64,000 bases of DNA from Acidimicrobiaceae bacterium (GCA_027449885.1 DAIDKS010000001.1:6644-70643), one strand, 5' to 3'; positions 31,226 to 52,608 are shown, counted from the first letter of the stretch. A program made the numbers and translations. Notes: a model not told the origin generated them from the letters alone.

Positions 31226-31232
31226 GGCAACC

Positions 31233-31358: not shown

Positions 31359-31488
31359 GACCCAGTCCGGTCTTGGCGCTGCTGTCGGTTAGTTGTCACT
31401 GACTAACCAGACCACCGTTGACGTCCCCTGAAGTTGTGTAACTTCATGCTCGCGGAGGGCCAAGGCCGTACAGCCACAGGAGGTGGCA

Positions 31489-32592: not shown

Positions 32593-33013
32593 CGCACTCG
32601 TCCCAACGCGTCAGTTGTCGTCGAGCACGACGCACGTCACGGCACCCGCAGCGTCCCCATGGAGAAGTGACACGGCGAGTCGCCTTCCCAGCGTGCTTCA
32701 AGTACTCGATGCTTGACTCTTGACACTGGCGCTAGGGGGCGGGAGGGTGGATAATGATCAGGTGAGTGCATCGTATATCGACGATGGACGGAAGATCGTC
32801 GTCCCCCGTACTCGCGATCAGACCTGGCGAGAGTGGTCTGGGCGATCGAGTGCTACGCGCCGGAACCCCGAACACCAACCTCACGTTGGATTGGCGTGCG
32901 AACGCACGAGGTTTCGCGCGGGGAGGTGAACCTGAGGTGATCATCCGCCAAGGCTTATTGACTCCAGCAGTCACCGCCGACGTGGTCGTCGGCCTAGAGG
33001 AAGGGAGAGGGCA

Positions 33014-34264: not shown

Positions 34265-34306
34265 GCCTGGTTCCGAGCGCGGTCCTCGGCGCGAGTGCGA
34301 CGGACT

Positions 34307-36697: not shown

Positions 36698-36954
36698 ACG
36701 TCTCCCTCGCGACTCGCCCGGGACCTTCGGTGGCGAGCTGTCGAGTGTCACCAATCGCCGCTCCACCGACTTCGGTGCGACTCGTGACCCAACGTCGCCC
36801 CGCCGTTGAACGCCACGCGCCGGTCAACACGCCCGAGCGCCGGTCGGGACTTTCGACCCTAGTGGCGATCCATCCATACATCTACATTGATCAATAGAGC
36901 AATCTAGAGGCCAGACGGGGGGCGGGCCTCGACCGACGGGATGGGAGGCTTCCC

Positions 36955-38181
36955 ATGAGCAGGATCGACCCTCGAGCTCAGTACGAGATCATCGGCGTGG
37001 AGGTGGTCGAGGAGGTGGACCTCGACGGCGACGGCTCGGTCAGCGAGCGCATCGCCCAACCCGGCGACTCGAGCGGCGCGCCGCTCAGCGGGCTGCGAGG
37101 ATTCCATCCCGGCTGGTTCGGCGCGGTCATGGGCACGGCGATCATCGGTGTGGCCGCCTCCCTGAATCCCGGCCACCTCCCGTCGCTCGCCTCGAGCGCG
37201 CGCGTGACCGGCCAGATCATGACCATCGTCTCCTTCGCACTCGCCCTCGGGTTGGTCATCCCTTACCTCGGGCGCATATTCCTTCACCCCGAGGCTGCTC
37301 TGGCGGACCTGCGTAGTCCGAGCGTGGGTGCGTTGTATGGCACTCTCCCGGGCGGGATCCTCGTGCTCGCCGCGACCTTCGCGTCCGTGGGCCCGACCTG
37401 GTTCGCCGCTTCAACCGTGCACACGACCGTCGCCTGGCTCGACTGGGTGGGCATCCCGCTCGCCCTCGGCGTGAGCGTCCTGTTCGCCTTCCTCCTCTTC
37501 GTGCGCGCCGAGCTCGATCCCGAGGCGGTGAACGGCAGCTGGTTCATCCCGCCCGTCGTCAACATCGTCGTGCCGCTGGTGCTCACCCCCCTCGTGCCCG
37601 GCGTCTCGCCGACCTCGGCGCGCACCCTGCTCTTCCTCGGCTACGGGTTCTGGGGCATGGGCTTCATCCTCTACCTCGTGCTGCTGACCATGCTCTACCA
37701 GCGCCTGACGATGCACGCCCTGCCCCACGCCGGTCTGGCACCCTCGCTGTGGATCGGGCTCGGACCCATTGGCGTCGGCAGCCTCGCGCTACTCAGGCTC
37801 GCCGCGGTGAGCGCGCCCGTGTTCGGGATCTACGCGACGAGCGTGCAACTCGCCTCCAAGATCGTCGCGACCATGCTCTGGGGATTCGGCGCGTGGTGGC
37901 TGCTCGCGGCCGTCGCGCTCCTCGCCCACTACCTTCGTTCGGGTGCTCTGCCCTACGGCGTGGGTTGGTGGGGCTTCACCTTCCCACTCGGTGCCTTCAC
38001 GGTGTCGACGCTGGCGCTGGCCGGAGCCTGGAGCCTCACCAGCCTCCAGTGGGTGGGAGCGGGGCTGTTCGTGCTACTGGTCGCCTTCTGGGTGCTCGTA
38101 GCCGTCGGCACACTTCGTTCGCTCGGCGCCCAGCGCCGCAGCGCACTGTCCTCGCCAACGATTTCGTTCTCACACCGATAG
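36955..38181 (+). CDS. TDT/SLAC1-family anion transporter (tellurite/dicarboxylate/sulfite)
   Basis: PGWFGAVMGT, WFIPPV, WIGLGPIG, WWGFTFPLG. Confidence 0.88.
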   Translation: MSRIDPRAQYEIIGVEVVEEVDLDGDGSVSERIAQPGDSSGAPLSGLRGFHPGWFGAVMGTAIIGVAASLNPGHLPSLASSARVTGQIMTIVSFALALGLVIPYLGRIFLHPEAALADLRSPSVGALYGTLPGGILVLAATFASVGPTWFAASTVHTTVAWLDWVGIPLALGVSVLFAFLLFVRAELDPEAVNGSWFIPPVVNIVVPLVLTPLVPGVSPTSARTLLFLGYGFWGMGFILYLVLLTMLYQRLTMHALPHAGLAPSLWIGLGPIGVGSLALLRLAAVSAPVFGIYATSVQLASKIVATMLWGFGAWWLLAAVALLAHYLRSGALPYGVGWWGFTFPLGAFTVSTLALAGAWSLTSLQWVGAGLFVLLVAFWVLVAVGTLRSLGAQRRSALSSPTISFSHR

Positions 38182-38189
38182 GAGACACC

Positions 38190-38570
38190 ATGAGCCAGAA
38201 CACCGCCAGTCCCGTTGACGTGGAGACGATCCTCGCGGGCATGTGGGCCTCGATGGGCGAGGTCCCGTCCGCCATCCAGAAGGCCGCCGCGGTGGACGTA
38301 GCCATGGTGGCCGAGCAAGTGCGCTCCAGCGCCTTCGCCATGCCCCCTGAGAACGGCTCGCTGAGCCCGGAGACCCGCACGCTTATCTACCTCGCCGTCG
38401 CCCTGGCGACCTCCAACGCCGCCTGCACGCGCGCCATGGTGAACAAGGCGCGCGTGCAGTCCATCGAGTCAGACAAGCTGCTCGAGGCGCTGCACATCGC
38501 TCGCTACGCCATGGCCACCCAGGTCATCGGCAACGCCGAGCCCGTCTACGACCTCATCAGCGAGCGCTGA
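38190..38570 (+). CDS. CMD/AhpD-like protein
   Basis: LSPETRTLIYLAVALA...CTRAM...EALHIA; AGGAGA RBS. Confidence 0.7.
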   Translation: MSQNTASPVDVETILAGMWASMGEVPSAIQKAAAVDVAMVAEQVRSSAFAMPPENGSLSPETRTLIYLAVALATSNAACTRAMVNKARVQSIESDKLLEALHIARYAMATQVIGNAEPVYDLISER

Positions 38571-38711
38571 GTCGGTGCCAGGGCCCGCGTCGCCAGCCAT
38601 GGTGTCACGTCGTGCCGCCGCCGCAGACGCCCGGGGCCCATCGTGCGTTGAGGATCACGATCGATCGGCGACGAGCGGCACCCGGCGCACGCCCAAGGAG
38701 AGGAGAGAGAC

Positions 38712-39389
38712 ATGCTGACTCTGGCTGCGCGACTCGTCCGAGCAACGCTTCGGCGCGCCGGTCGCGCGCGTCTCGAGTCCCGCCAGTTGCTCTCGATGAG
38801 CATTCTGGCGGGCGTCGCGATGCTCATCCCCTGGACGTCGTTCCTCGCCGTGACGCTGCCCTCGCACTTTCGCGCCCACAACTGGAGTGTGACCTGGGTC
38901 GGCTTCGACGCGGCCCTGATGCTGGTGCTCATCGCCACCGCCTGGGCGGCGTGGTTCCGCCGACAGGTACTCGCCGCCCTGTCCGTGGTTGCGGCCACGA
39001 TGCTGCTGTGTGATGCGTGGTTCGACGTCAACACCGCATGGGGAACCCACGGAGTGAAGGTGAGCATCGCCACGGCGCTGGCTGGCAACATCCCGCTGTC
39101 TCTCGCGCTCCTCTGGCTGACGAGGCGGATTCTGCTCGGCACCGCTGCGGTCGTGGCCGTTGCCACGCACCGAACCGAGGTTCCGCACCGGGCGATCGAT
39201 GTTGCCATCCCCGTTCTCGGCACACGTCGCGGCGCGCACGCCCGCCCGGCGCGCGAGCTTCAGTCGCGGTCGAGCGTGACTCCCAGCTCGGCGAGCAACG
39301 CCCTCACGCGCGCATCCACGTCGTCCACGATGCGCCGCACGGTCTCGAGGTCCTGCCCGGCGGGATCCTCCACCTCCCAGTCGAGATAG
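38712..39389 (+). CDS. Hypothetical membrane protein; 3' end overlaps arsC
   Basis: AGGAGAG RBS; four TMs, WVGFD and CDAWFDV. Confidence 0.6.
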   Translation: MLTLAARLVRATLRRAGRARLESRQLLSMSILAGVAMLIPWTSFLAVTLPSHFRAHNWSVTWVGFDAALMLVLIATAWAAWFRRQVLAALSVVAATMLLCDAWFDVNTAWGTHGVKVSIATALAGNIPLSLALLWLTRRILLGTAAVVAVATHRTEVPHRAIDVAIPVLGTRRGAHARPARELQSRSSVTPSSASNALTRASTSSTMRRTVSRSCPAGSSTSQSR

Positions 39390-39721
39390 CGCTTACCGGG
39401 AAAGAAGGGGCACGTTTCCCCGCAGCCCATGGTCACGACGACGTCAGCGTCCTCGACCAGGTCAGAGGTCAGCAGCGTGGGCACCTCGTCGTCGGTACGC
39501 AGTCCGCGCTCGGCGAGCACCGCGGCCACCAGCGGGTTGACGCCCGAGCCCGGCTCCGAACCCGCTGAGGCGACGCCGACACGTCCACGCGCATAGTGCT
39601 CGGTGAGGATCTTGGCTGCGACCGAACGACCGGAGTTGTGGATGCAGGCATAGAGCACGACGGGAAGCCGCGCTGGCACACCCTCTGTGCCAGCTGCGCG
39701 CGACTGGATCGGTTCACTCAT
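39260..39721 (-). CDS. arsC: Arsenate reductase, LMW-PTPase fold
   Basis: CIHNSGRS, SAGSEP, TMGCGETCP, WEVEDPAG. Confidence 0.92.
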   Translation of the reverse strand: MSEPIQSRAAGTEGVPARLPVVLYACIHNSGRSVAAKILTEHYARGRVGVASAGSEPGSGVNPLVAAVLAERGLRTDDEVPTLLTSDLVEDADVVVTMGCGETCPFFPGKRYLDWEVEDPAGQDLETVRRIVDDVDARVRALLAELGVTLDRD

Positions 39722-40809
39722 GCGGTTGTCTCCTTGGTCGAGGGATAGAAGCGCCGACGGGCCCAGAGCGAGACGTACACCAGTCCCACCAAGGCGGGCA
39801 CCTCGATCAGGGGACCCACCACACCCGCCAGCGCCTGGCCCGAGGTCACGCCGAATGTGCCGATGGCGACGGCGATGGCCAACTCGAAATTGTTGCCGGC
39901 CGCCGTGAAGGCCAGGGTGGCCGTGCGCGGATAGGACAGTCCCAACGCTCGGCCGGTGAAGAACGCAACACCCCACATGATGGCGAAGTAGCACAGCAGG
40001 GGGAGTGCGATGCGAGCCACGCTCATCGGCTCGTGGGTGATGGCGCTGCCCTGCAGGGCGAAGAGTATGACGATCGTAAAGAGCAGACCGTACAGCGCGA
40101 AGGGCCCAAGACGCGGGAGAAGGCGCGTCTCGTACCACTCGCGCCCGCGACGGCGCTCGCCGAATGTGCGCGTGAGGTATCCGGCCAGGAGCGGGATCCC
40201 CAGGAAGATCAGCACGCTGCGCGCGATCCCCCACATCGACACGTCCACCTGAGTCGTGGGCAGGCCCATCCAGCCGGGCAACACCTTCAGATAGAAGTAG
40301 CCGAGAATCGCGAAGGCCACGATCTGAAACAGCGAGTTGATGGCCACGAGTACCGCGGCGGCCGTGTCATCGCCACAGGCCAGGTCGTTCCAGATGAGGA
40401 CCATCGCAATGCAGCGAGCCAGGCCGACGAGAATCAGTCCGGTGCGATAGGCCGGCAGGTCGTAGAGGAAGATCCACGCCAGAGCGAACATCAGCGTGGG
40501 CCCCACCACCCAGTTGAGAATCAGTGAGGGCATGAGAAGACGCCGATCAGCGGTCACCCGGTTGATCTCGCCATAGCGAACCTTGGCGAGTACGGGGTAC
40601 ATCATGACCAGCAGTCCTAACGCGATGGGCAGGCTAGTGCCGGCAATCTGCACGTGCTCCAGCGCAGTGTTCAAGCTCGGAACGAGGCGCCCCAGTCCAA
40701 TGCCCAGGACCATGGCCAGCCCGATCCACACCGGCAAGAACCGATTGACCACTGAGAGGTGCCCGACAACATGGGCCTCGGCGTCCGTGACCGCGCGCTC
40801 AGCGACCAC
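39718..40809 (-). CDS. acr3: Acr3 arsenite efflux permease
   Basis: MMYPVLAKV, LNWVVGP, GLARCIAMV, GNNFELAIAV, GPLIEVP. Confidence 0.95.
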   Translation of the reverse strand: MVAERAVTDAEAHVVGHLSVVNRFLPVWIGLAMVLGIGLGRLVPSLNTALEHVQIAGTSLPIALGLLVMMYPVLAKVRYGEINRVTADRRLLMPSLILNWVVGPTLMFALAWIFLYDLPAYRTGLILVGLARCIAMVLIWNDLACGDDTAAAVLVAINSLFQIVAFAILGYFYLKVLPGWMGLPTTQVDVSMWGIARSVLIFLGIPLLAGYLTRTFGERRRGREWYETRLLPRLGPFALYGLLFTIVILFALQGSAITHEPMSVARIALPLLCYFAIMWGVAFFTGRALGLSYPRTATLAFTAAGNNFELAIAVAIGTFGVTSGQALAGVVGPLIEVPALVGLVYVSLWARRRFYPSTKETTA

Positions 40810-40985
40810 GGGTCCACCGAGCGTTCTCCGATGTGGGCCGCGTACGCCGTGGGGCGACCCCAGACGCACCTGACTTCTCGATCACCGCGACGCCTTTCGT
40901 GCTAAGCCTATTGACGCATCTGAATGTATCATGGAGTCATCGCGGCTCCGACCGTCCTCGCCGCGACGGAGAGACTGGACACATC

Positions 40986-41348
40986 GTGAGTGCTACCCGA
41001 TCCACTACCCGAGCGGCACAGGCGGGCGATGCCGTGCGCGTGCTTGTGGCGCCGGACGCCGAGCCCATCGACGTGCGCGACGCTGAAGCCTTGGCGCGCA
41101 CGATGAGCGCCTTAGCGGACCCAGTGCGAATCCAGTTGCTCTCCATCGTGGCCAGTCGCGGCGAGGTCTGCTCCTGCGAGCTGATTGAGCCACTGGGTAA
41201 GAGCCAGCCCACCGTCAGCCATCACACGACAGTGCTCGCCAACGCCGGGCTCTTGCTGGGAGAGAAGAGGGGCCGATGGACGTGGTGGCGCGTTGATCCT
41301 CAGGCGCTCGGCGACGTGCGCCGCGCTCTGGGAGGTTCGAGCGCATGA
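40986..41348 (+). CDS. arsR: ArsR/SmtB repressor
   Basis: ALADPVRIQLL, EVCSCEL, SQPTVSHH. Confidence 0.88.
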   Translation: MSATRSTTRAAQAGDAVRVLVAPDAEPIDVRDAEALARTMSALADPVRIQLLSIVASRGEVCSCELIEPLGKSQPTVSHHTTVLANAGLLLGEKRGRWTWWRVDPQALGDVRRALGGSSA

Positions 41349-41393
41349 ACCGCAGAGCGCGCTCGCGAACACCTTTGATCGCTACCATGAGCG

Positions 41394-41747
41394 GTGATGA
41401 CTGACACGGCGGCAATGAGTCACGCCAGCACGTCGGCGTGCTGCGAGAGCACCTCTGTCCAGCCTCTCGCACTGTCTCGCGACGACGAGGAGAAGCTCGC
41501 AACCTTGGCCAAGGCTCTCGGTCATCCGATGCGCGTGAGGATCCTGCGCCTGCTCGCGGAGAGCAACTCCTGCGTGACCGGCGACCTCGTCTCGCAACTG
41601 CCGATCGCCCAGTCCACCGTCTCCGAGCACCTGAGGATCCTTCGCGAGGCTGGACTGGTCCAGGGAGAGATCGAGGGCCCCCGAACGTCCTACTGCCTCA
41701 GCCAGGACGGCGTCGCCCGTCTGAAGGCGATCGTCGCGGCACTCTGA
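41394..41747 (+). CDS. arsR: Second ArsR/SmtB repressor
   Basis: N-terminal CC, KALGHPMR, CVTGDL, AQSTVSEHL, YCL. Confidence 0.88.
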   Translation: MMTDTAAMSHASTSACCESTSVQPLALSRDDEEKLATLAKALGHPMRVRILRLLAESNSCVTGDLVSQLPIAQSTVSEHLRILREAGLVQGEIEGPRTSYCLSQDGVARLKAIVAAL

Positions 41748-41767
41748 GCGACGGCGACGCCACGTCG

Positions 41768-41811
41768 TTGACAGGACACGGTGATACGCATATAATCGTT
41801 CTTCGACGATT
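41768..41811 (+). promoter_or_regulatory. Consensus housekeeping-sigma promoter of arsDA with overlapping ArsR-type operator
   Basis: TTGACA (41768)-N17-TATAAT (41791); AATCGT-N6-ACGATT inverted repeat at 41794-41811. Confidence 0.8.
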
Positions 41812-41835
41812 ACCGATTACCACCGGAGGAGCCCA

Positions 41836-42573
41836 ATGTCCGTGATCGAAGTCTTTGACCCGCCGATGTGCTGCTCAACCGGAGTCTGCGGACCCCGTGT
41901 CGACCCGGCCCTGGCAGCGTTCGCCTCCGACCTCGGCGAGCTCGCCGCGCGAGGGGTGAGCGTCACGCGCCACAACCTCTCCCAGGAGCCGGCGGCCTTC
42001 GCCGAAGACGAACTGGTGCGCGGCCTGCTTCACGAGCACGGCGACGAGGTCCTGCCGGTCATCAAGGTCAATGGCGAGCTTCGCTCGTCCGGGCGCTACC
42101 CCAGCCGTGAGCAGCTGGAGTCATGGACCCTCGGTGACGCCGAGACGTCCCTCGACGCCCGGACGGCGGAGTTGGTGGCCCTGGGGGCCGCGATAGGGGC
42201 CAACTGTGAGTCCTGCCTCAAGTACCACTACAACCAGGCGCGTCTCCTCGGAGTCAGCTCGGCGACGATGGTGGCCGCCGCGCGCGTCGCTCAAACGGTT
42301 AAGGATGCTCCCGCCGCCTCGATGCTGGCCCTGGCCGCCAAGCTTCTGGAGACGACTCCCGAGTCACTCGGCGCCACGGCGACGGGTGCCACTACAGCGA
42401 GCGACGCCGGGCCGTCGCCAGATGACTCCGCGTGCTGCTCGCCCGCCACGGACCTCGAGGTGGCGAGCTCGTCGGACGAGGACTGCGGATGCGGCGACGG
42501 CGGCTGCGCCAGTCCCAGTTCCGAGTCTCTGAGCATCGGGGCGAATCCGAAGTCGGAGAGCTGCTGTGGCTGA
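41836..42573 (+). CDS. arsD: ArsD metallochaperone fused to an AhpD/CMD domain and a Cys-rich tail
   Basis: FDPPMCCSTGVCGP; ELVALGAAIGANCESCLKYH; tail with CC, CGC, C and CC. Confidence 0.85.
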   Translation: MSVIEVFDPPMCCSTGVCGPRVDPALAAFASDLGELAARGVSVTRHNLSQEPAAFAEDELVRGLLHEHGDEVLPVIKVNGELRSSGRYPSREQLESWTLGDAETSLDARTAELVALGAAIGANCESCLKYHYNQARLLGVSSATMVAAARVAQTVKDAPAASMLALAAKLLETTPESLGATATGATTASDAGPSPDDSACCSPATDLEVASSSDEDCGCGDGGCASPSSESLSIGANPKSESCCG

Positions 42574-44389
42574 GTCGCCCTCAGCTCTGAGTTCCCTTCT
42601 CGTGCACTCGCCCAAGTTCCTCTTCTTCACGGGCAAGGGTGGAGTCGGCAAGACGTCGATCGCCTCGGCGACGGCGGTGGCGCTCGCGGACCTGGGACGG
42701 CGCGTCCTTATTGTCTCCACCGATCCGGCCTCGAACCTTGACGAGGTGCTCGAGACACCCTTGGACGCCACGCCACGCGCCGTGGCGGGCGTTCCTGGGC
42801 TGGACGCGTCCAACCTCGACCCGCTGGTGGCCGCGGCCGCCTATCGCGAGCGGGTGGTCGGCCCCTACCGTGGCGTGCTGCCCGAGCTGACGGTGGCGAA
42901 CATTGAGGAGCAGCTCTCGGGAGCCTGCACGGTGGAGATCGCCGCCTTTGATGAGTTCGTGACCCTCCTGGCCAACCCCGAGGCGACCGCCGCGTACGAG
43001 CACGTCATCTTCGACACCGCGCCCACCGGGCACACACTTCGCATGCTCTCTCTGCCGGGAGCGTGGGACGAGTTCATGGACGCGAGTACCCTCGGCGTCT
43101 CCTGCATCGGACCCTTGGCCGGACTGACCCAGCAACACGAGGCGTACCGCCGCGCGATCGCAGCGCTGGCCGACGCCGAGCGCACCCTGCTCGTCCTGGT
43201 CACACGGGCCGACGACATCGCCCTGGACGAGGCCGCCCGCGCCTCGCGCGAGCTAGCGGCACTCGGCATTGTGAACCAGCGCCTGGTCCTCAACGGCGTG
43301 CTGCACGCGCCCAACTCGGAGGACTCCTTGGCCGTGGCACTCACGGCGCGAAGCGCGCGCGCGATCGCCGAGGCCCCCGCGATCCTCCAGGATCTGCCCC
43401 GAGACGTGATCCCGCTGTTCGCGTGGTCCCCTCGCGGCGTCGACGCACTGCGCGCCGTAGGCTCGCACGCCCCGGCTCCCGCCCCAGCACCGTTGCGTGA
43501 GCTCACCTCGCCGACCGAGGGCCTGAGTGAACTGATCGACGCTGTGAGCGCCAACGGGAGCGGACTGGTGATGACGATGGGCAAGGGCGGAGTCGGAAAG
43601 ACCACGCTCGCCGTGGCGGTGGCGCTCGAGCTGGCTCGGCGCGGGCACCGGGTCCACCTGTCGACCACTGACCCGGCCGCGCACCTGGACGCGGTGCTCG
43701 CCGAGTCAGCAACTGGGCTCACGGGGCTCACGGGGCTCAGCGTGCATCGCATCGACCCCGAGGCGGTCACTGCCGAGTACACGGCGGAGGTGATGGCAGA
43801 GGCCGGCGCCGACCTCGACGACGCCGCACGCGCTGTGCTCGAGGAGGATCTTCGATCACCCTGCACGGCAGAGATCGCGGTCTTTCGCGCCTTCGCTCGT
43901 ACCGTGGGCGAGGCGGTCGAGGGCTTCGTCGTGCTCGACACCGCCCCGACGGGACACACTCTGCTATTGCTCGACTCGGCTCGCGCCTACCACCAGGAGG
44001 TTCTGCGACAAGGTGGCGTCGTGCCCGAGGACGTTGAGCGGCTGCTTGAACGCCTGGGCGATCCCGACTTCACCAGTGTGCTGATCGTGACCCTGCCCGA
44101 AGCGACGCCGGTGCACGAGGCAGCCGCGCTGCAGGACGACCTGCGCCGCGCCGGCATCGAGCCTCGCGCCTGGATCGTCAACCAGAGCCTCTTTGCGGCG
44201 GGCGTTACGGAGCCAACCCTCTCCGCACGCGCCGACGCCGAGACGAACGTCATCAACGAGGTACTGGAGATGTACAGCCCGACGCTGGTCCTGCTGCCGA
44301 TGCTGGGTGAGCCCCCGATCGGCACCGCTGGCATCAAACGCCTGCTGGCGACGTCGGCGAGCGCCGCCACCACGACCGCTGACGCGTGA
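42566..44389 (+). CDS. arsA: Arsenite-stimulated ATPase
   Basis: Two GKGGVGKT, two DTAPTGHT, SGACTVE, SCIGP, SPCTAE. Confidence 0.96.
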   Translation: MAESPSALSSLLVHSPKFLFFTGKGGVGKTSIASATAVALADLGRRVLIVSTDPASNLDEVLETPLDATPRAVAGVPGLDASNLDPLVAAAAYRERVVGPYRGVLPELTVANIEEQLSGACTVEIAAFDEFVTLLANPEATAAYEHVIFDTAPTGHTLRMLSLPGAWDEFMDASTLGVSCIGPLAGLTQQHEAYRRAIAALADAERTLLVLVTRADDIALDEAARASRELAALGIVNQRLVLNGVLHAPNSEDSLAVALTARSARAIAEAPAILQDLPRDVIPLFAWSPRGVDALRAVGSHAPAPAPAPLRELTSPTEGLSELIDAVSANGSGLVMTMGKGGVGKTTLAVAVALELARRGHRVHLSTTDPAAHLDAVLAESATGLTGLTGLSVHRIDPEAVTAEYTAEVMAEAGADLDDAARAVLEEDLRSPCTAEIAVFRAFARTVGEAVEGFVVLDTAPTGHTLLLLDSARAYHQEVLRQGGVVPEDVERLLERLGDPDFTSVLIVTLPEATPVHEAAALQDDLRRAGIEPRAWIVNQSLFAAGVTEPTLSARADAETNVINEVLEMYSPTLVLLPMLGEPPIGTAGIKRLLATSASAATTTADA

Positions 44390-44443
44390 GACGGATTCAG
44401 CGCTGTAGCCGCGAGAGCATCACCAATAGGAATAGGAGAATCC

Positions 44444-44800
44444 ATGTCCAAGGTCGTAGTCCATATCTTTCACGGCGACGATGACTCGCTGTCCGCTGGC
44501 TCGCACGTCAGCGAGCGCATCCGTCAGGTCGCCGCTGAACAGGGCGTCTCGCTCGAGGTCTTCTGCTTTGGTCCGGCCCAAGGCGCCCTGAGCGCGTCGG
44601 GTGACTCCGTCGTTAGATCCGAGTACAACCAGCAGATAGACGAACTCATCGACGCGGGAGTGCCCGTAGGCGCCTGTCTCAACGCTGCGCGCGCGGCCGG
44701 GACCGAGGAAGCACTCTCGGCCCGCGGCATCACCCTGCAGTTCGCTCGTGACGCCTTCGTGCGCTATGCACTTGAGGGCGCCACCGTGATCAATTTCTAG
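44444..44800 (+). CDS. DsrE/F-like sulfur-relay protein
   Basis: KVVVHIF, EVFCFGPA, GACLNAA, EGATVINF. Confidence 0.65.
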   Translation: MSKVVVHIFHGDDDSLSAGSHVSERIRQVAAEQGVSLEVFCFGPAQGALSASGDSVVRSEYNQQIDELIDAGVPVGACLNAARAAGTEEALSARGITLQFARDAFVRYALEGATVINF

Positions 44801-44804
44801 ATTC

Positions 44805-45593
44805 GTGGCACTCGAAGATCAGGCCTCGGAGGAGCCGAGGAGCGACGAGGTGACCTGGTCTCTCGCAGCGTGGCTGGAGCGGGCGACCTTGCCGAGTTTC
44901 TCGGTCCTCGACACTCGCTCGGCCCAGGGCCGACTCGACCCGAGGGTGAAGACCGTTCGCGTGGCGGACCTCATCCTGGCGCACGGGCACCCTTGTGACG
45001 GACTCTTGCGCGGCGTCTGGGCGATGCGGGCCCTGGCCGACGTCGCCTTCGGAGATGACCCTTTCGACCGCAGCGACCTGCTCGTGGTCTCCAAGAATTC
45101 GCCGTGCCTCGGTGACGTGGCGGCCTACCTTACCGGCGCTCGCGTGCGCTTCGGCACGCACCGTCTCGACGACTCGCTGGGCGTGGGCTTTCAGGTTCAG
45201 CGCCTATCGAGCGGCGAGGCCTGGGAAGTTCGCGAGGAGCCGGGGTTCTTTCCCGCCGAGATCAGCGCCTGGGAGTCGAGCCTGCTAAGCGAGACGTATT
45301 CGGAGTCCGAGAAGCGCGAGATCCTCGCGGTTCACGAATCCGCTCAATGGAACTGGGTCCGCGACGTCTTGTTTCAGAGCGCGCCGAGCGAGCACTATCA
45401 CGCGAGACGCCTCGAGAGCTTCGATCCCCCCGCGCCGCTCCACGAAGCCCGGCGCACCGACACCGTGAACCGCTCAGTGCCTCCTCCTCTCGAGGTTCCG
45501 AGTCCGGACGATCCAGGTGTTCACATACTGCCCAGCAAGCCCGCCGAGTCCCGCTGGCAGCACACGTACGATATTGGGCCGAGCGCGTCGTAG
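44805..45593 (+). CDS. FmdE-family protein
   Basis: AHGHPCDGLLRG and NSPCLGD His/Cys motifs. Confidence 0.65.
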   Translation: MALEDQASEEPRSDEVTWSLAAWLERATLPSFSVLDTRSAQGRLDPRVKTVRVADLILAHGHPCDGLLRGVWAMRALADVAFGDDPFDRSDLLVVSKNSPCLGDVAAYLTGARVRFGTHRLDDSLGVGFQVQRLSSGEAWEVREEPGFFPAEISAWESSLLSETYSESEKREILAVHESAQWNWVRDVLFQSAPSEHYHARRLESFDPPAPLHEARRTDTVNRSVPPPLEVPSPDDPGVHILPSKPAESRWQHTYDIGPSAS

Positions 45594-45827
45594 GCGTTCT
45601 AGAGTCACGTGCCAGCGGGTTGGCGCTCCGGGATCATGCGCTGGCGGTGCACTGACCGGTCCCCGATTGCTGGTCCACTCACGATGCGAGGAACTGCTTC
45701 TGTCGGGTGAGCCACTGATCAACGAACACGGCTGGGGTCTTTCACCCATGAGTGCTGTGGGCTCGGTTGATGTCGTCGTCGATGCCGCCGTGTTGTCCGC
45801 TCCTGACGACCCGAATTGTGCCGAATA

Positions 45828-46061
45828 CCGTGGCAGGGTCAACGGCAAGAAGTCCACACGCCTGTGTTTGCTTGACGCTTCGCTCACAAGAAAGGGGCTT
45901 GCAGGGCCCCGTACTTGTGTGTCACTCAGTCGAAACTTCTCCATCGCTAAGCACCACAAATGGGGCGTCATGAGGGTAGTCCCATCGCTCGGGTGCGAGC
46001 CTTCTCGCCTGGTCCGCGCGAAAATGCCGTGGCAACTACCGAGGCAGCGCTGCCTCGATCC
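45828..46061 (+). repeat. Right end of element A, homologous to 52300-52534
   Basis: CCGTGGCA at 45828 and 46027, CCGAGGCA at 46039; core-like GGGGC-TTGCAGG-GCCCCGTACT at 45894-45915. Confidence 0.88.
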
Positions 46062-46110
46062 TGGAGGCGGCGTCCGGATTCGAACCGGAGTACGGGGCTT
46101 TGCAGGCCCC
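46062..46110 (-). repeat. att copy 2 (junction between elements A and B)
   Basis: Identical 49 bp of the tRNA-Cys 3' part. Confidence 0.97.
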
Positions 46111-46242
46111 GACAACGTGGGCCAGGGCGCGCCTGACTGTGCCAGGAGTCCTTGAAACACTGATGATTGTCCCACTTTCCTGACACCACTTGGTATCTGC
46201 CCCGCACGGATTACGTCAGTTACCGTGGCAATTACCGTGGCA
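46111..46242 (+). repeat. Left end of element B, homologous to 31226-31358
   Basis: TGGGCC, CGCGCC, TGTGCC at 46118, 46128, 46138; CCGTGGCA at 46223 and 46235. Confidence 0.85.
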
Positions 46243-46579
46243 GCCTTCCTTACGGTTTGTCATCATTCTGCAATATCCCCAATAGCATCGCTTGCTGACG
46301 ACGTCAGCGACGCTCGCAAAGAGGGCCGGCCGCGCCTCTGATTCCGACTCAGACGACCTTCGGCACCTCGTTCGGTTTCTTTGCCAACCGAGTTGGCATG
46401 AGACGCTACCGACGACCAGTGACACCAAATGCTCCGGCGACAGTGCTCACGCTGCCGCCATGAGGGGACCGGCAGGCCGCCCAGCAGGACCGCTGCGCCA
46501 ACGGAGAGGCCGTCATAGATTCCATGCCCTCAGTGCCAAACCCCGCCACCAGGTCGGCACGAGCAGGGATAATTGGGGC

Positions 46580-46966
46580 ATGGCTGGCACCGTGCACGAC
46601 ACTCACGACCTCGCCGAGCAGGTACATGCCGCCTTCACGGCTCGGGACCTCCAGGCGTTCGGCGTTCTGCTCAGCAGCGATGTTCGCTGGGGTGACGACG
46701 ATCTCCCTCGACGGTGCCGGAGCCGTTCGGACGTGCTCGCGACGTTCCGTCGGCTCATGGATGAAGGCATGGAAGCCGACGTCACCGAATGCGTCGCAGG
46801 AACGAATGGACTCCTCTGCGGTCTTGCCGTGACGCTCCCGGGTCGGGGCAACCATCCAAGCGAGCGGAACCTCTTCCACGTCTACCTCGTGCGCGACAAC
46901 CGCATTGTCGAGATTCAGCCTTACGACGATCGAACGTCGGCTGCTATGGCAGCAGGCATCGCGTAA
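46580..46966 (+). CDS. SnoaL/NTF2-like protein
   Basis: AFTARDLQAFGVLLSSDVRW...VYLVRDNRIVEIQPY. Confidence 0.7.
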   Translation: MAGTVHDTHDLAEQVHAAFTARDLQAFGVLLSSDVRWGDDDLPRRCRSRSDVLATFRRLMDEGMEADVTECVAGTNGLLCGLAVTLPGRGNHPSERNLFHVYLVRDNRIVEIQPYDDRTSAAMAAGIA

Positions 46967-46993
46967 GGCACCAACGGTGAAGGGAGCCGACGC

Positions 46994-47215
46994 ATGTCTG
47001 CGGTGACCATCTACGGCGTGTGCGCCGTGACCTTCATGATGGCGATGTATGCCCTTGAGCGTCGGGGCCGGAGGTTCATCCTGGCGTTCGCGCTCGGCTG
47101 TCTCTTGTCGAGCGCCTACGGCTTCCTTTCTGGAGCATGGCCATTTGGCGTCGTCGAGTTCATTTGGTCCGGCGTTGCCATCCGGCGGTATCAGACCAGC
47201 GGCCTTCACCGGTAA
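46994..47215 (+). CDS. Small three-TM hypothetical protein
   Basis: AAGGGAG RBS; hydrophobic; AYGFLSGAWPFGVVE. Confidence 0.65.
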   Translation: MSAVTIYGVCAVTFMMAMYALERRGRRFILAFALGCLLSSAYGFLSGAWPFGVVEFIWSGVAIRRYQTSGLHR

Positions 47216-47252
47216 GCGGCACTCGGGTCCAGCGGGACGGATTTTCAGCTAA

Positions 47253-47900
47253 CTAATGCCCACGTATGGCGCCCGCTGCGCGGAGTAGCTGACGCATGGT
47301 ACTGACAGGGACGCTGTTGCGGTACACGACGTGTCCTGCTGCGTCGATGAGGAAGTAGTCGTCCGGAGTGCCGCTGGGATCGTAGGAAAGCGACAGCGAT
47401 TCCGACGCAGTTCCCCACGTCCAGCCTGGGGAACTGAGGGTGCCACCGGCTGAGCTTCCGAATGCTGCAAGCTCGGTGAGCCCCGAGCGTCCCGGCGGGA
47501 ACGCGCCCCAGAGGCCGAGGGTCACGACATGAATGCCATCTCGATGGAGGGCTGTGAAGTGCGAAGCGACCGCGGGGATGCTCGCTGCGCAGCTCGCACA
47601 CCCGCCAGCCACGAACCACAGCAAGATCGGTTGACCACGAAGTGACGTCACGGTCACGCTCTCGCCCGCGAGCGTGGTGAACGGCCCGTTCGGTGCGATC
47701 AATGGGGTGATCGATTTCGCCTGACGAGCCCTGGCGACGGCTTGCGCCGCTGGTCTGCCGTGGTCCATGTGAATGAAACCGACAGTGCCAGCCGCTGCCA
47801 CGATGGCAGCGATGAGCAGATAGCGAATCACGCGCCGTCCTCGATTCGGCTGCGTCGCGCTGAGAGATTCGGCATCGTCCGAGGCAAGGTCTGTGGTCAT
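47253..47900 (-). CDS. Membrane-anchored thioredoxin-fold (redoxin) protein
   Basis: TM anchor; LLWFVAGGCASC; YFLIDAAGHV. Confidence 0.8.
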   Translation of the reverse strand: MTTDLASDDAESLSATQPNRGRRVIRYLLIAAIVAAAGTVGFIHMDHGRPAAQAVARARQAKSITPLIAPNGPFTTLAGESVTVTSLRGQPILLWFVAGGCASCAASIPAVASHFTALHRDGIHVVTLGLWGAFPPGRSGLTELAAFGSSAGGTLSSPGWTWGTASESLSLSYDPSGTPDDYFLIDAAGHVVYRNSVPVSTMRQLLRAAGAIRGH

Positions 47901-48526
47901 TTCAGCCGTCCAATTGCTGCAAGAAGCTGGGGCATGGTTGCCCCTGGCGAGCTATTCACGTAGGCCACGTGTCCACCAGCATCGAGCAGGTAGTAGATGT
48001 CGAGGTAACTCTGGGGATCGTAGGTTCGGGTGAGCGCGGGAGAGGAAGTTCCGAACGTCCAGTCCGGACTCTTGGCCCCAGGTCCGGCCAGTACATGGGC
48101 GAATTTCGTCATCGACGGGCCAGACTGGCCGAGGTCGTCATACAACTCCACTTCCTCGACGTGCACCCCGTCAGAGCGCATCGTCGCTATCTGCTGCGCC
48201 ATGGCTTGGGTGCCCGCCTGGCATGACGAACACCAAGTAGACACGAACCACAACAACGTCGGCTGGCCGCGAAGTGACGACACTTCTACCCTCGTGCCCG
48301 CGAGGGTCGTGAATGTCCCGTTCGGGGCAAGCTGGCCGACGGCCGGCGTCGCGCTCGCGGTTCCTGACGGCCGATTGGCAAAATGCAGGACAAGCACGAT
48401 GCCTGCGATGACGATGACCGCCACGCCTATGCCGCCAAACCAGCGTCGTCGTTTGCGCGCGACGGCTTCGGCCTTGCGTCGTGCCCGATTGGACATCCCC
48501 CGGGGTGGCTGTGTCGTCTTGCTCAT
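47897..48526 (-). CDS. Membrane-anchored thioredoxin-fold (redoxin) protein, paralog
   Basis: TM anchor; LLWFVSTWCSSC; YYLLDAGGHV. Confidence 0.8.
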   Translation of the reverse strand: MSKTTQPPRGMSNRARRKAEAVARKRRRWFGGIGVAVIVIAGIVLVLHFANRPSGTASATPAVGQLAPNGTFTTLAGTRVEVSSLRGQPTLLWFVSTWCSSCQAGTQAMAQQIATMRSDGVHVEEVELYDDLGQSGPSMTKFAHVLAGPGAKSPDWTFGTSSPALTRTYDPQSYLDIYYLLDAGGHVAYVNSSPGATMPQLLAAIGRLK

Positions 48527-49176
48527 CGGGAACCGCTGTCTTCAGACTGCAGGGCGCCAGGCGACCGGGCAGCATCGCAGTCCGGACCGATATCGCATCC
48601 TGGTCCGACAAGACACGAGGCTGCGGCCACCTTTCGAAGTCCCCACCATGAGGAGAGGACGAGCAGCGCGAGGCTTCCTCCAAGAAACTCCGACTGGTGC
48701 GTGGCAAAGAAGTGCTGAAGGGTGCCAGTCGTGCCATACAGGCCGACTCCCGAAACGCCGACAAACGACAGCACCGTCGGGATGATCGGGGTGCAGCACA
48801 GGAAGCTCGGCAACAGGCTTCCGACAAATGCGAGACCGCCTGCAATTCCACTAGATGCACGAGCCCGGACGATCCGGCGCATGGCGTGGACCTGCACGCT
48901 GACGACGACACCCATCCCCGCTGCGAGCACGATCGCCCAGATGAGGAGGTACGCATTGAGGTACTGCCAGTTCTGGAACGAGACGCGCTGGGTGTAGTCG
49001 AATGGCAGTAGCACGCTGTAGAAGAAGGCGACAACGAGCGTTGCGACAGCGAACACGCTCAGGCTCACCCGGTCCCTGACGATGTCTCCCACGACGCGCG
49101 GGACAGATCGTCGTGGGGACAGTTGGACGAACTGCGCTGCTTCCTGCTTCATATCCGCAAGCTCCGTACTCACCAC
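48523..49176 (-). CDS. Four-TM membrane protein with an intramembrane CC pair
   Basis: SFLCCTP within a TM; Cys-rich C-terminus. Confidence 0.65.
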   Translation of the reverse strand: MVSTELADMKQEAAQFVQLSPRRSVPRVVGDIVRDRVSLSVFAVATLVVAFFYSVLLPFDYTQRVSFQNWQYLNAYLLIWAIVLAAGMGVVVSVQVHAMRRIVRARASSGIAGGLAFVGSLLPSFLCCTPIIPTVLSFVGVSGVGLYGTTGTLQHFFATHQSEFLGGSLALLVLSSWWGLRKVAAASCLVGPGCDIGPDCDAARSPGALQSEDSGSR

Positions 49177-49460
49177 CTCGTCTCCCTGACCGGAGGCTTG
49201 GTCGCGATCGGCTCACAGCACGTCCCTTTCGATCGCGATCGGCGGCGGAGAACGATGACGGCGATGCTGCCGATGACAGCGACAAGAGCGCCGATGACGA
49301 GTCCCCTGGCGAGTGCGCTCGCGGCCGCAAGCACCGCGATGATGAACGGGCCGCCGCAACACAGCACAGGAAGAAGGAAGAGCAGTCCTGCCCACGCACC
49401 AGTTCCTCCCTGTGGCTGTTCGCTTTGCTGGCCTGACTGGAGCTGAGGCTGCTCGCTCAT
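49170..49460 (-). CDS. Small MerF/MerT/MerE-like mercury transporter
   Basis: VLCCGGP in TM1, second TM, cytoplasmic TCCEP; overlaps the merA stop. Confidence 0.65.
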   Translation of the reverse strand: MSEQPQLQSGQQSEQPQGGTGAWAGLLFLLPVLCCGGPFIIAVLAAASALARGLVIGALVAVIGSIAVIVLRRRSRSKGTCCEPIATKPPVRETRW

Positions 49461-50908
49461 GCTGCACAACACGACAATGCAGCGACGTCCCGGGAGAACG
49501 ACTGCGCGGTGAGTTTGATCGCTTCTGCCATCGTGAGGTACGGCGTCCACACGGTGGCAAGCTGTTCGACAGTGAAGTTCGCTTCCAAGGCGTAGACCCC
49601 GGCCAGGATGGCGTCTGCTGCACCGTCAGCAAGGAGGTGGATGCCGAGGACACGGCCGGTGCCCTGCTCAGCAACAATCTTTGCGACCCCGCGAGTATCG
49701 CGATTGACGATGGCACGAGGCACATTCGCGAGCGGGAGCACTCGGCACTCACAGGAGATGCCGCTCCGGACGGCCTCCTCGTCCGTCATGCCTACGGATG
49801 CAATCTGGGGCGAGGTGAAGGTGACCCGCGGGAGCGTGCGGTAGTCCACGCGGCGATGGGAGCCCGACAGGGCATTGTCTGCGACAATCCCGCCGTGCAG
49901 CCCCGCGACGTAGACGAACTGGGGATGTCCTGTGACGTCCCCGGCTGCGAAGATGCGCGGATTCGTCGTACGCAGTTCGTCGTCAACGATGACCTCGCCA
50001 CGCGATCCGACGCGGACACCGACAGCATCGAGTCCAAGGCCGCTCGTGTTCGGACGGCGGCCAGTCGCAACGAGCAGGGCTTCAGCACGAAGTGACCGGG
50101 ACCCGCTGGAAGTGTCGATTCCGACGGCGACGACCCCGTTCTCCTGAAGCACCTTCGTTACAGTCACGCCAGCTTCGACAGCGATCCCCTCGTCGTCGAA
50201 GATGCGCGTGAGTGCCTCGGACACCTCTGGTTCCTCGAACGGGGCGATGCGGGAAATGGCCTCCACGATGGTGACCTTCGAGCCGAGGCGGCCGAAGAGC
50301 TGCCCCTGTTCGAGACCGACGGCATTGCCCCCGATGACAATGAGCGACTCCGGGACATGGTCCAGCTCCATGGCCGTCGTCGATGTCAGGTAGTGGACCT
50401 GCTCAAGACCCGGGATGGGAGGTACCCAGGGTGCAGCACCGGTAGCGATGACGTAGTGACCGGCAACGACCGTGGCCCCGTCTACGGTCAACGTGCCATT
50501 GGCACTGAAGCGACCGTGTCCGTGGATGATGTCGAAGCCATATAGGTCGGCGAGGTTCTCGTACTTCTCGTGGCGCAGCGCCTCGACGATCGCACCCTTG
50601 CCCGCGATGAGAGCCGACATGTCCACGGCCTGGGCGCCTGTCTCGATACCGGGAAATCGCCCGGAAACAGCCGTGTGACGCACCTCGGCGGCGGCCAACA
50701 AGGCCTTAGACGGGACGCATCCGACATTCACACAGGTGCCGCCGACGAGTCCCTCCTCGACCATGACGACTGACGCGCCTATTCGCTTCGCGGCAATGGC
50801 CGTTGCGAAGGCGGCGCTCCCCGACCCGACAATCGCTAGGTCGTACCGTGCGTGACTCGAGGCGTCCTCACGCCTCTTCTCCGGGCCTCCATCGCAGCAC
50901 TCCATCAT
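49457..50908 (-). CDS. merA: Mercuric reductase lacking an NmerA domain
   Basis: GSGSAA, GGTCVNVGCVPSK, QFVYVA, PYLTMAE, C-terminal LSCCAA. Confidence 0.95.
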   Translation of the reverse strand: MMECCDGGPEKRREDASSHARYDLAIVGSGSAAFATAIAAKRIGASVVMVEEGLVGGTCVNVGCVPSKALLAAAEVRHTAVSGRFPGIETGAQAVDMSALIAGKGAIVEALRHEKYENLADLYGFDIIHGHGRFSANGTLTVDGATVVAGHYVIATGAAPWVPPIPGLEQVHYLTSTTAMELDHVPESLIVIGGNAVGLEQGQLFGRLGSKVTIVEAISRIAPFEEPEVSEALTRIFDDEGIAVEAGVTVTKVLQENGVVAVGIDTSSGSRSLRAEALLVATGRRPNTSGLGLDAVGVRVGSRGEVIVDDELRTTNPRIFAAGDVTGHPQFVYVAGLHGGIVADNALSGSHRRVDYRTLPRVTFTSPQIASVGMTDEEAVRSGISCECRVLPLANVPRAIVNRDTRGVAKIVAEQGTGRVLGIHLLADGAADAILAGVYALEANFTVEQLATVWTPYLTMAEAIKLTAQSFSRDVAALSCCAA

Positions 50909-50973
50909 CGGCTCCTTCCAGGCTGAATTTGCGATACCCCACTGGCCCAGATGCTCCGGTGGGCCACGCATCC

Positions 50974-51005
50974 AGGATAAACCCTCCAGTGTGATGGAGA
51001 GTCAA
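50974..51005 (-). promoter_or_regulatory. MerR-type promoter/operator
   Basis: TTGACT-N20-TATCCT on the minus strand with CTCCA-N6-TGGAG dyad in the long spacer. Confidence 0.8.
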
Positions 51006-51021
51006 GAGGTATATTTGAGAA

Positions 51022-51432
51022 ATGCGCATCGGGGAGTTGGCACGACAGACAGAGGTTCCGATCAAGACGATCCGGTACTACGAAGAGATCGGAGTGCTCC
51101 CCAGCCCCACGCGAGCGCCCTCCGGGTACCGGGAGTACGATGCCGGAGTCATTGATCGGCTGCGCTTTATCCGCACAAGCCAAACGGTGGGCTTTACGCT
51201 TGGAGAGATCCGCGAGATCGTCGCTTACCGCGACCGCGGGGAGGTCCCGTGCGTCCACGTACTCGACCTGCTACGCCGTCACCGCGAGGACTGCGCCAAG
51301 AAGATCGCCGATTTGCAGGAGGCCGAACGAGCGCTGGATACGCTCGTTGAGCGAGCTACGAAACTGCGCGAAGAGGACTGCTCGGCCGAGACTGTCTGTC
51401 ACCTCATTCCACGGGCAGTGGAACGGCTTTAG
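51022..51432 (+). CDS. merR: MerR-family metal-responsive regulator
   Basis: MRIGELA...TIRYYEEIG, GYREY, VPC and CSAETVC cysteines; divergent from merA. Confidence 0.9.
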   Translation: MRIGELARQTEVPIKTIRYYEEIGVLPSPTRAPSGYREYDAGVIDRLRFIRTSQTVGFTLGEIREIVAYRDRGEVPCVHVLDLLRRHREDCAKKIADLQEAERALDTLVERATKLREEDCSAETVCHLIPRAVERL

Positions 51433-51759
51433 AAACACCTTGCGATTGGTCGATGGGCGGCAGGAACGGATATACAGTCTCCCGGATTCGGTCCAGGTTC
51501 CGTCGAGACGGTGTTGGGGTCAGCGACACGGCGATGGGGTGATTGAACCGAGGTGGAGTCCGCGGGTGGACCGCGCCCGACCAAGGAGAAGACGCAATCG
51601 GCGCTGATGTTGCGCAGTCAGGAGATGACGCTGAAGGAGTTGGCGCGTCAAGTCTCCTGCGCTACCTCTTTCGTCTAGATCCCGCCGCGGCGCTCGTAGA
51701 CTCCAGGACCGCCACCGAAGGAGCGGCCGCCGCGAGAGCGTCAGCTCACGATTGGAAAG

Positions 51760-52140
51760 CATGGGCAGATCCTCACGGTTCTGGCGCGAAAGGAGTCACT
51801 CAGCGCCATCGCCCGTTCACTCGGACGGTGGCCATCGACGGTGGCCCTGCACGGTCGCGGCCATCGGTAGGCGTAGCGACGATTCCCTCCACGATGCTCA
51901 GCGACGCGCCCAGTGCCAGGCTCAACGTCCCAAGAGAGCCAAACTCTGCGCCGAGCAGTTGTCGAAGGACGTGTCAAGGCGGCTGGAGACGCTGCGAAGT
52001 CCCGAGAAGATCTCGGCGCCGCTGCCAGCGGCCGACCGGCGACGAATCCATGCGAGCATCAACGGGCGTCCGCGTGCCACCCTTGGCCACGTGACACCGT
52101 TGGAAAGGTTCGCCAACCTCGTTGCGCTCACTGTTAAACC
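51760..52140 (+). pseudogene. IS30-family transposase remnant (frameshifted, catalytic core deleted)
   Basis: SLSAIARSLGRWPSTV HTH in one frame; AQRPKRAKL...SPEKIS joined to the C-terminal INGRPRATLGHVTPLERF...VALTV in another. Confidence 0.7.
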
Positions 52141-52299
52141 GCCTCCATCGAACTAAGAGTGATTCAAACCTCTACCTCAGAGACATCGTGGCGAAGGACC
52201 TTCGAGCGCGCTTGGCTCGAGGATCCGACCCGCCCGCTCTCTTCACCATCGGCACGCGAATGGCGTCCTCGACCGGGCCCGTGAAATCAGCGTCGAATG

Positions 52300-52534
52300 C
52301 CGTGGCACGTTGGGAGGCAAGACATCCAAGACCCATTTGTTTGCTTGGCTTCTCGTCCAAAAGTACGGGGCTTGCAGGGCCCCGTACTCGCGTGCCAATC
52401 AGTCGAAGCACTCCCATCGCTGACCACATCAGGAAGAACCACGCAGAGGCCATCCCATGGTTACGGTCTCAGCCTTCTCTCCTGGTCCGCCAGAGAATAC
52501 CGTGGCAACTACCGAGGCAGCACCAACCCGATCC
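52300..52534 (+). repeat. Right end of element B
   Basis: CCGTGGCA at 52300 and 52500, CCGAGGCA at 52512; AGTACGGGGC-TTGCAGG-GCCCCGTACT at 52362-52388. Confidence 0.88.
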
Positions 52535-52608
52535 TGGAGGCGGCGTCCGGATTCGAACCGGAGTACGGGGCTTTGCAGGCCCCTGCCTAACCACTCGGCC
52601 ACGCCGCC
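52535..52608 (-). tRNA. tRNA-Cys(GCA)
   Basis: GGCGGCGTGGCCGAGTGGTTAGGCA-GGGGC-CTGCAAA-GCCCC-GTACTCCGGTTCGAATCCGGACGCCGCCTCCA. Confidence 0.98.

Follow-up and report, generated by a model that had tools for sequence, protein, structure and literature searches.

The window considered here, a 64,000-nucleotide stretch (C1:6644-70643) of the 1.98-Mb assembly of an Acidimicrobiales metagenome-assembled genome (MAG) from mine drainage that is 84% complete, carries two tandem islands, A and B, inserted at a tRNA-Cys gene. In both islands there is, 200 bp inside the right (tRNA-side) end, a second site of the attachment (att) core type, AGTACGGGGC-N7-GCCCC(GTACT), preceded by an arm pair of its own. 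This combination of an arm pair (-72/-60) and a core-type site repeats the true arm-plus-core geometry about 19 helical turns away. Our tentative preference is that the internal site, which lies in the long tRNA-side P arm, is an accessory module to which a tyrosine integrase acting in trans would bind without crossing over there. The components of the att regions are as follows.

31177..31225, + strand: att copy 1, the displaced tRNA 3' half and core, spacer TTTGCAG at 31214-31220; left boundary of island A (repeat and three-way alignment)
31339..31358, + strand: arm pair in the left (P') arm of island A, at +125 and +137 from the att spacer
45828..45847, + strand: distal arm pair of island A (CCGTGGCA and CAACGGCA), 71 and 59 bp before the internal spacer
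45889..45915, no strand assigned: internal core-like site of island A, AGAAAGGGGC TTGCAGG GCCCCGTACT (sequence check)
46027..46046, + strand: proximal arm pair of island A (CCGTGGCA and CCGAGGCA), 72 and 60 bp before the att spacer, which is also 128 and 140 bp after the internal spacer
46062..46110, + strand: att copy 2, the junction of the island A right arm and the island B left arm, spacer at 46099-46105 (repeat and alignment)
46223..46242, + strand: arm pair in the left (P') arm of island B, at +124 and +136 from the att spacer
52300..52319, + strand: distal arm pair of island B (CCGTGGCA and GGGAGGCA), 72 and 60 bp before the internal spacer
52362..52388, no strand assigned: internal core-like site of island B, AGTACGGGGC TTGCAGG GCCCCGTACT, a perfect repeat (sequence check)
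52391..52397, + strand: CGTGCCA in island B, 19-25 bp after the start of the internal spacer
52500..52519, + strand: proximal arm pair of island B, at offsets equal to those in island A
52562..52588, + strand: att copy 3, the core in the live tRNA anticodon stem-loop, AGTACGGGGC TTTGCAG GCCCCTGCCT (three-way alignment)

At the att core, the stretch running from the tRNA 3' end through AGTACGGGGC TTTGCAG GCCCC is identical at 31177, 46062 and 52535. The internal spacers, TTGCAGG, lie at 45899-45905 in A and 52372-52378 in B, each exactly 200 bp before an att spacer TTTGCAG (46099-46105 and 52572-52578), and the left half of the internal site, AGTACGGGGC, is identical to a half-site of the true crossover core. 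The initial annotation of this DNA, made from the sequence alone, had already described these sites; all of its coordinates, including those of the spacers and of CCGTGGCA, proved correct to the base. The perfect 10-bp inverted repeat that it saw in island B (AGTACGGGGC/GCCCCGTACT) is there, and so is the duplication of the arm-plus-core unit, with an arm pair 71-72 bp before the internal spacers and 72 bp before the att spacers. In island A the internal site is lengthened by an outer CACAAG/CTTGTG symmetry.

Judged by its sequence, the internal site is not a product of chance. The pattern GGGGC-N7-GCCCCGTA has five occurrences in the whole assembly, three of them at the copies of the tRNA-Cys core and the other two at the internal sites, and shuffling each 300-bp arm (those of A, B and five relatives) never reached the observed core-like score (0/2000). 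At the internal site 22 nt are identical between A and B, within an arm that is 76-78% identical around it. The homology of the two right ends starts at the distal arm pair (45815/52288), and it is because they are homologous without indels between site and core that their 200-bp spacing is the same. As for the arms, nine of the 51 copies of CCGTGGCA in the assembly lie in att regions, all of them on the + strand and mostly as 12-bp-spaced pairs, three second members being the variants CAACGGCA, GGGAGGCA and CCGAGGCA. Counted from the core spacer, the arm motifs form clusters at -272/-260, -72/-60 and +125/+137, on both sides of the core. The CGTGCCA of island B has the same offset from the internal spacer as TGTGCCA has in the left arms (31233-39).

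Relatives of the islands, whose taxonomic labels are Acidimicrobiales or 'Ferrimicrobium', were found by BLAST (193 genus genomes and 200 family genomes), by a pattern scan of one genome per species and by a metagenome scan. This gave a collection of 14 right ends, A and B included. The internal site is present in 11 of them, distributed over three lineages that differ in their arm repeat and whose P arms are otherwise unalignable:

CCGTGGCA-arm lineage (6 ends): A, B, G179, SMAG_U16010 (= G667), WY1.bin86-b (= G646; WY1_b) and G629-Y
CAGGGGCA-arm lineage (1 end): G194
CTGTGGTA-arm lineage (4 ends): G610, G672 (= Ga0307374), L081 (Ga0182024) and L082a (Ga0182015-a)

The left half-site followed after 7 nt by GCCCC scores 14-15/15 in seven of the nine right ends scored; G179 and SMAG carry decayed copies (11-12/15). 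With respect to the recognition motif that an accessory subsite should have, the left half-site equals the att half-site in 7/9 right ends and the inner GGGGC/GCCCC is kept. A TGTGCCA-type motif after the internal spacer is common only to the CCGTGGCA-arm lineage. Aligning homologous ends, the check that the initial annotation had proposed, upholds the site itself and not its finer points: the spacer sequence varies, and the spacing, exactly 200 bp in A and B, ranges from 189 to 220 bp in the relatives. Wider searches added no member to the family. The arm-plus-tRNA pattern had 0 matches in the JGI metagenomes, and the hairpin and arm-plus-tRNA patterns had 0 in IMG/VR, where the 9 matches to an arm-pair pattern were all unrelated coding repeats; BLAST with the P arm at the order level gave short chance matches in coding DNA only, and a left-arm search at the family level gave no match beyond this genome.

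Compared from one lineage to another, the 22-nt site has an identity of 77-100%. Its flanks (48 bp on the left and 100 bp on the right) have between-lineage global identities of 0.42-0.65, no better than the 0.53-0.55 of shuffled sequences, and between-lineage BLAST matches comprise the tRNA and the internal site alone. The conserved part consists of the left half-site AGTACGGGGC, the 7-nt spacer and GCCCC; the right half is either the palindromic copy GCCCCGTACT or a tRNA-side-like GCCCCTGTCA. Within the CCGTGGCA lineage, conservation peaks at the site (74-93%) and at the arm pairs (68-88%), compared with 55-77% in the rest of the arm. Both the site and an arm pair 71-73 bp before it have been retained in three deeply diverged lineages, and by this measure the internal unit is evidently under selection.

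These figures bear on the idea that the site is a functionless relic, namely a right arm, core and left arm that once formed a tandem junction in an ancestor, were left when an accreted element was deleted down to about 200 bp, and have simply been inherited. The internal unit does resemble a whole att junction in having an arm pair, a core and the TGTGCCA motif; moreover, decayed versions exist in G179, SMAG, WY1_a and G629-X, and tandem accretion with subsequent decay is known for cis-mobilizable elements (PMC5704250). However, neutral inheritance cannot hold 22 nt at 77-100% identity with surroundings at the shuffled level, nor can it hold the 71-73 bp between arms and site once the former tRNA half has been overwritten. 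Comparison of the internal right flank with the true left arms also gave no significant similarity beyond the 7-nt motif at +19 to +25. A mere relic seems to us unlikely.

A second idea concerns the palindrome. A hairpin terminator or insulator could stop both tRNA-Cys read-through into the island and cargo transcripts running antisense through the tRNA, and an island that replaces the region downstream of a tRNA needs such a device; the site-less L082b has a hairpin and T tract after its tRNA. For the hairpins of A, B and G194 the folding energy is about -17 to -21 kcal/mol on either strand, the tRNA strand has a T-rich tail in A and B (TTTCTTGTG; TTTTGG), and a terminator scan calls the site of A (- strand). 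Nevertheless, the GC-rich stem with a direct U tract that defines an intrinsic terminator is not general: only A passes the scan, B has TTTT, and in the other 7 of 9 ends there is no T tract on either strand. Changes in the hairpin arms are mostly disruptive rather than compensatory; the stem, which a terminator would leave free to drift, stays identical to a recombination half-site; an Rfam search matched the tRNA only and no family at the site; and a terminator would require neither helical phasing with the core nor an arm pair 72 bp away. At most 5 bp of the stem can pair in the CTGTGGTA lineage, and since the unpaired AGTAC and the spacer are 100% conserved there, selection is on the sequence and not on a hairpin. 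It had also been suggested in the initial annotation that the central GCA of the spacer mimics an inverted Cys anticodon arm, and this did not survive the comparison either (TTACAGG, TTACATA and others in relatives). That GCA, perfect palindrome and T tract are all unconserved argues against an anticodon mimic as well as a terminator, and we consider the latter very improbable.

The geometry of the duplicated unit is more constant than its sequence context. In all three lineages the arm pair lies 71-73 bp before the internal spacer and 71-72 bp before the att spacer, and the DNA in between is the tRNA 3' half in the att unit and unrelated sequence in the internal unit. The distance from site to core takes the values 189, 198-201 (five ends), 209 (G194 and, independently, L082a/Ga0182015-a) and 219-220 bp (three ends), or about 18.0, 19.0, 19.9 and 20.9 turns of 10.5 bp. 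One 12-bp arm unit has been lost twice independently, with a net distance change of -11 each time. A rough p of 0.002-0.03 for all of the distances sharing one helical phase, based on about five independent values, makes a common phase of site and core suggestive.

How might such a module operate? The integrase, supplied in trans and not encoded by the island, would bind it through both its arm-binding and its core-binding domains, and the integral number of helical turns between the module and the true core would permit the looping of one to the other. Once looped, the module could help to load or hold integrase at the true core or, perhaps, impose the right synapse. Between its spacer and the tRNA anticodon loop the register is shifted by one base (TTGCAGG versus TTTGCAG), which should disfavour strand exchange with tRNA-Cys, an exchange that would destroy the tRNA. 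Sequence, conservation, geometry and the lack of an integrase gene are what was observed; integrase binding, looping and the lack of crossover are what we infer. We favour an accessory role because a crossover with tRNA-Cys would presumably split the sole tRNA-Cys gene and leave it unrestored, because the spacer seems to be one base off the att overlap register, and because the phasing with the core suggests cooperating sites. An alternative target specificity, one of the functions first proposed for the site, is unlikely for a similar reason, as integration through it would be expected to split tRNA-Cys with the 3' half unrestored. The proposals of an integrase decoy or a second integrase site have fared better, in that a conserved duplicated unit fits this family of ideas. 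More generally, the data fit a protein-DNA module that uses the arm and core specificities of the integrase, whether as an accessory site that is only bound or as a second crossover site.

The last of these possibilities, an active second crossover site (a second attP, the attachment site of the mobile element), would let exchange at the internal spacers of different islands swap or delete cargo, or reshuffle the 200-bp end. The unit is fully equipped for it, having two half-sites around a 7-bp spacer with an arm pair at -72/-60, and the CCGTGGCA lineage shares with the true left arms a TGTGCCA-type motif at +19. The spacer TTGCAGG is identical in six ends (A, B, G610, G672, L081 and L082a), as exchange partners need, and A and B, in one genome, share their 22 identical nt at the site. 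On the other hand, the remaining members have different spacers (TTACAGG, TTGCCGG, TGGCAGG, CTGCGGG, TTACATA), and the right half-site is not retained in the CTGTGGTA lineage. The proximal arm pair might double as the left-arm pair of the internal core, since it lies at +128/+140 in A and B, near the left-arm position of +125/+137, and at exactly +125/+137 in G194; in G672 and G610, however, it is at +148/+160, and we do not rely on this reading. With respect to mosaic structure, a comparison of A and B, which are homologous on both sides of the site, places no cargo boundary there. Only G629-Y loses its homology to the family there, at the left edge of the site, but a deletion would explain this break equally well, and the Ig (immunoglobulin)-repeat cargo of G629-Y is the same as that of G179. 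Altogether, we think it rather unlikely that the internal site is a place of crossover, but the idea retains some weight from the spacer identity across two deep lineages and in both islands of this genome.

Several observations also weigh against the accessory module that we prefer. No cognate integrase was found in the 84%-complete MAG, which yielded just two Xer-like genes and an integrase linked to tRNA-Val on another contig. Three right ends lack the canonical site: in WY1_a it has decayed, in G629-X the half-sites ACGGGG and CCCCGT are about 38 nt apart, and L082b has no site at all; the module is therefore dispensable or these three elements are dead. Nor is there an internal site in the tRNA-Cys elements, from sister genera in the family, that do carry an integrase (two copies in G016, and one each in G125 and G044), where the integrase gene ends about 130 bp before the core and the arm repeats are TGTGCCAT. 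The retention of TTGCAGG in two deep lineages is something that a pure binding site would not obviously require. Finally, the argument from helical phase draws on only those five or so independent values.

With regard to the locus as a whole, the tRNA-Cys gene and the two islands are placed as follows.

31221..46104, no strand assigned: island A (Pfam and NCBIfam; no recombinase gene in a six-frame search with PF00589 and PF00239)
46105..52577, no strand assigned: island B (Pfam and NCBIfam; no recombinase gene in the same six-frame search)
52535..52608, - strand: functional tRNA-Cys(GCA) gene (ARAGORN; Rfam tRNA, 63 bits)

The 43-bp tRNA 3' half with the anticodon stem-loop is present in three copies, at 31177, 46062 and 52535, which together with the CCGTGGCA arm sites form the boundaries of the islands; the 3' half of the functional gene (52535-52577) is contributed by island B, and the junction at 46062 is a complete right arm, core and left arm. 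The GC content of the islands is 0.62-0.69 and that of the flanks 0.70-0.73. Island A carries arsenic and sulfide-stress genes (ArsR, ArsD, ArsA, an ACR3-type SBF protein, a P-type ATPase and SLAC1/TDT), and island B mercury genes (MerA at 49457-50971, MerR at 51022-51432 and two thioredoxin-fold proteins). In the family more widely the cargo is metal resistance, an AbiE toxin-antitoxin, a regulator with an ABC transporter, an extracytoplasmic-function (ECF) sigma factor or Ig-repeat proteins. AbiEi/AbiEii pairs recur in WY1_b, G672 and Ga0182015-b (= L082b), and a regulator with an ABC-2 transporter in G194, G629-X and Ga0182015-b; these small integrase-less tRNA-Cys islands look like shuffled cassettes in which a few cargo modules are reused.

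The absence of an integrase is a property of the whole family. A six-frame search with PF00589 had no match in the window (the nearest, at C1:112096, is Xer-like), PF00239 had none on the contig, and the whole assembly, searched in six frames, has no tyrosine or serine recombinase gene in either island. Not one of the eight complete family elements has an integrase gene, so any integrase must come in trans. The arrays of this genome (G000) and of G179, G194, G672, WY1, G629 and L082 contain no integrase-bearing partner, although these contigs are finite and a partner could lie further away. The suggestion that recombination at the internal site explains the loss of the integrase gene found no support: the arm has no integrase relic, and the integrase-bearing elements of the sister genera are without the site. 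In particular, the P arm is not a decayed integrase 3' end, inasmuch as tblastn of the tRNA-Cys integrases of the sister genera against all of the P arms matched the tRNA part only. Mine-drainage metagenomes contain the DNA of the window, and none of the runs listed as containing it is of RNA; in four such metagenome runs the assembled contigs, which break at repeats and drop rare forms, show no joints at the internal or att sites.

Among known systems a close parallel is with the attP of lambda and of mycobacteriophage L5. As in these phages, the islands have a core that is an imperfect inverted repeat around a 7-bp overlap, here in a tRNA anticodon stem-loop, a 43-bp block of identity to the tRNA 3' end, and 8-bp arm repeats that lie in one orientation, in 12-bp-spaced pairs, on both sides of the core. 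Unlike the phages, they have no integrase gene in or beside the element, so that the overall island site is to all appearances a lambda/L5-type att site minus the integrase gene. A further difference from lambda and L5 is that the P arm of the islands contains a second site of the core type, accompanied by its own arm pair. On the usual view an arm-type att site has a single crossover core. We know of no described attP that has a second core-type site with an arm pair of its own, and a literature search, which was not exhaustive, found none.

Extra recognition motifs are familiar from another context. In res II/III of Tn3/gamma-delta, in DR1/DR2 of the Tn4430 internal resolution site (IRS; recombinase TnpI) and in cer/psi (XerCD), additional recombinase motifs with altered spacer or geometry lie beside the crossover site, are not cut and organise the synapse; about 200 bp of accessory DNA are involved. 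Of the known systems it is these that the internal module would most resemble in its working, being an extra recognition motif beside a crossover site. The res, IRS and cer systems resolve replicons or cointegrates and have either no arm-binding domain or host accessory proteins, whereas for the islands the setting is a tRNA gene with arm sites, and the reactions concerned are integration and excision.

The arrays also recall those of integron attC/attI sites, in that promoter-poor cargo units without a recombinase accumulate at one fixed site, each with an imperfectly palindromic element. They differ from integrons in that an island ends at the tRNA core and not at the palindrome, which is 189-220 bp away, and in that the island sites exceed 400 bp and have arm repeats; no IntI-like gene was found beside the array. 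Taking the resemblance further, one might imagine the tRNA-Cys locus as an integron-like capture platform, on which integrase-less cassettes with a 'double attP' of about 430 bp would be stacked and exchanged by a trans-acting tyrosine integrase. The cassettes could be metal resistance, AbiE toxin-antitoxin pairs or ABC transporters, and the internal unit would either load the integrase or serve as a cassette-exchange crossover that spares the tRNA. We put this forward as a distinctly doubtful possibility.

Finally, the islands can be compared with cis-mobilizable elements (CIMEs), described as decayed integrative and conjugative (ICE) or integrative and mobilizable (IME) elements that are mobilised by a neighbouring functional element, examples being the relatives of ICESt1/ICESt3 with their tandem accretion (PMC5704250). 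In sequence the islands fit the definition of that paper: att sites flank them, genes for integration or transfer are absent, and they are stacked one after another at the 3' end of a target gene. In contrast to CIMEs, no functional partner such as an adjacent ICE or IME is seen in any island array, and all eight complete members are integrase-less and yet have long, structured and conserved att ends. These ends look maintained rather than decayed.

If our preferred reading of the site as an accessory binding module is true, the intasomes of tyrosine integrases would have a new design element, a second core-type site that is conserved, is phased with the first and brings an arm pair of its own, and this would suggest how integrase-less islands compete for a borrowed integrase. 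The islands described here carry resistance to arsenic and mercury in bacteria of mine drainage. As a compact natural set with three dialects of arm, four classes of spacing and copies in both decayed and intact form, the family could be used, once the integrase is known, to probe the control of integration, excision and tandem accretion by an accessory site.

Some minor features of the islands and their relatives deserve mention. At 31177-31253 ARAGORN calls a complete 77-nt tRNA-Cys with its anticodon at position 36; only the 3' half of this is derived from the tRNA, its '5' half' being the left arm of island A, so it is probably a pseudo-tRNA, and the junction at 46062 receives no such call. 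Island A, and not island B, has a perfect palindrome CGAGGCAGC/GCTGCCTCG (window 46040-46058) that overlaps the second proximal arm site just after the tRNA 3' end. In L082b a canonical hairpin, GATGAAACCC...GGGTTTCATC, with TTTGTTG stands directly after the tRNA 3' end (reverse strand of L082, before the att core at 6915), which shows that some islands at least supply their own tRNA terminator. The integrase-bearing tRNA-Cys elements of the sister genera are in tandem in G016 (L061), the others being those of G125 (L060) and G044 (L063). Their hexamer TGTGCCAT also occurs in the left arms of the window islands (31233-31262), at a 10-bp phase, a recurrence that hints at a relationship between the integrases of the two groups.

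A tyrosine integrase of 380-400 aa directly follows tRNA-Val(GAC) in G194, in G170 and on contig C47 of this genome (e.g. L057 6273-7595, also L058 and L003), and in G194 and G170 this tRNA-Val with its integrase is 6-8 kb from tRNA-Cys. We have rejected this enzyme as the cognate integrase, given that its target is a different tRNA and that nothing was seen to tie it to the tRNA-Cys islands. A tRNA-Val(GAC) with no adjoining integrase is also present in the window, at 16433-16509, and the assembly thus has two tRNA-Val(GAC) loci. Lastly, the chromosomal flank to the right of tRNA-Cys (window 52583-52900) has a contig k-mer depth of about 4-15 in the mine-drainage runs, compared with about 32, 255 and 395 for the island contigs of the same runs. 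Either the cells that carry A and B mostly have a different right flank, or the MAG contig was joined through the tRNA repeat.

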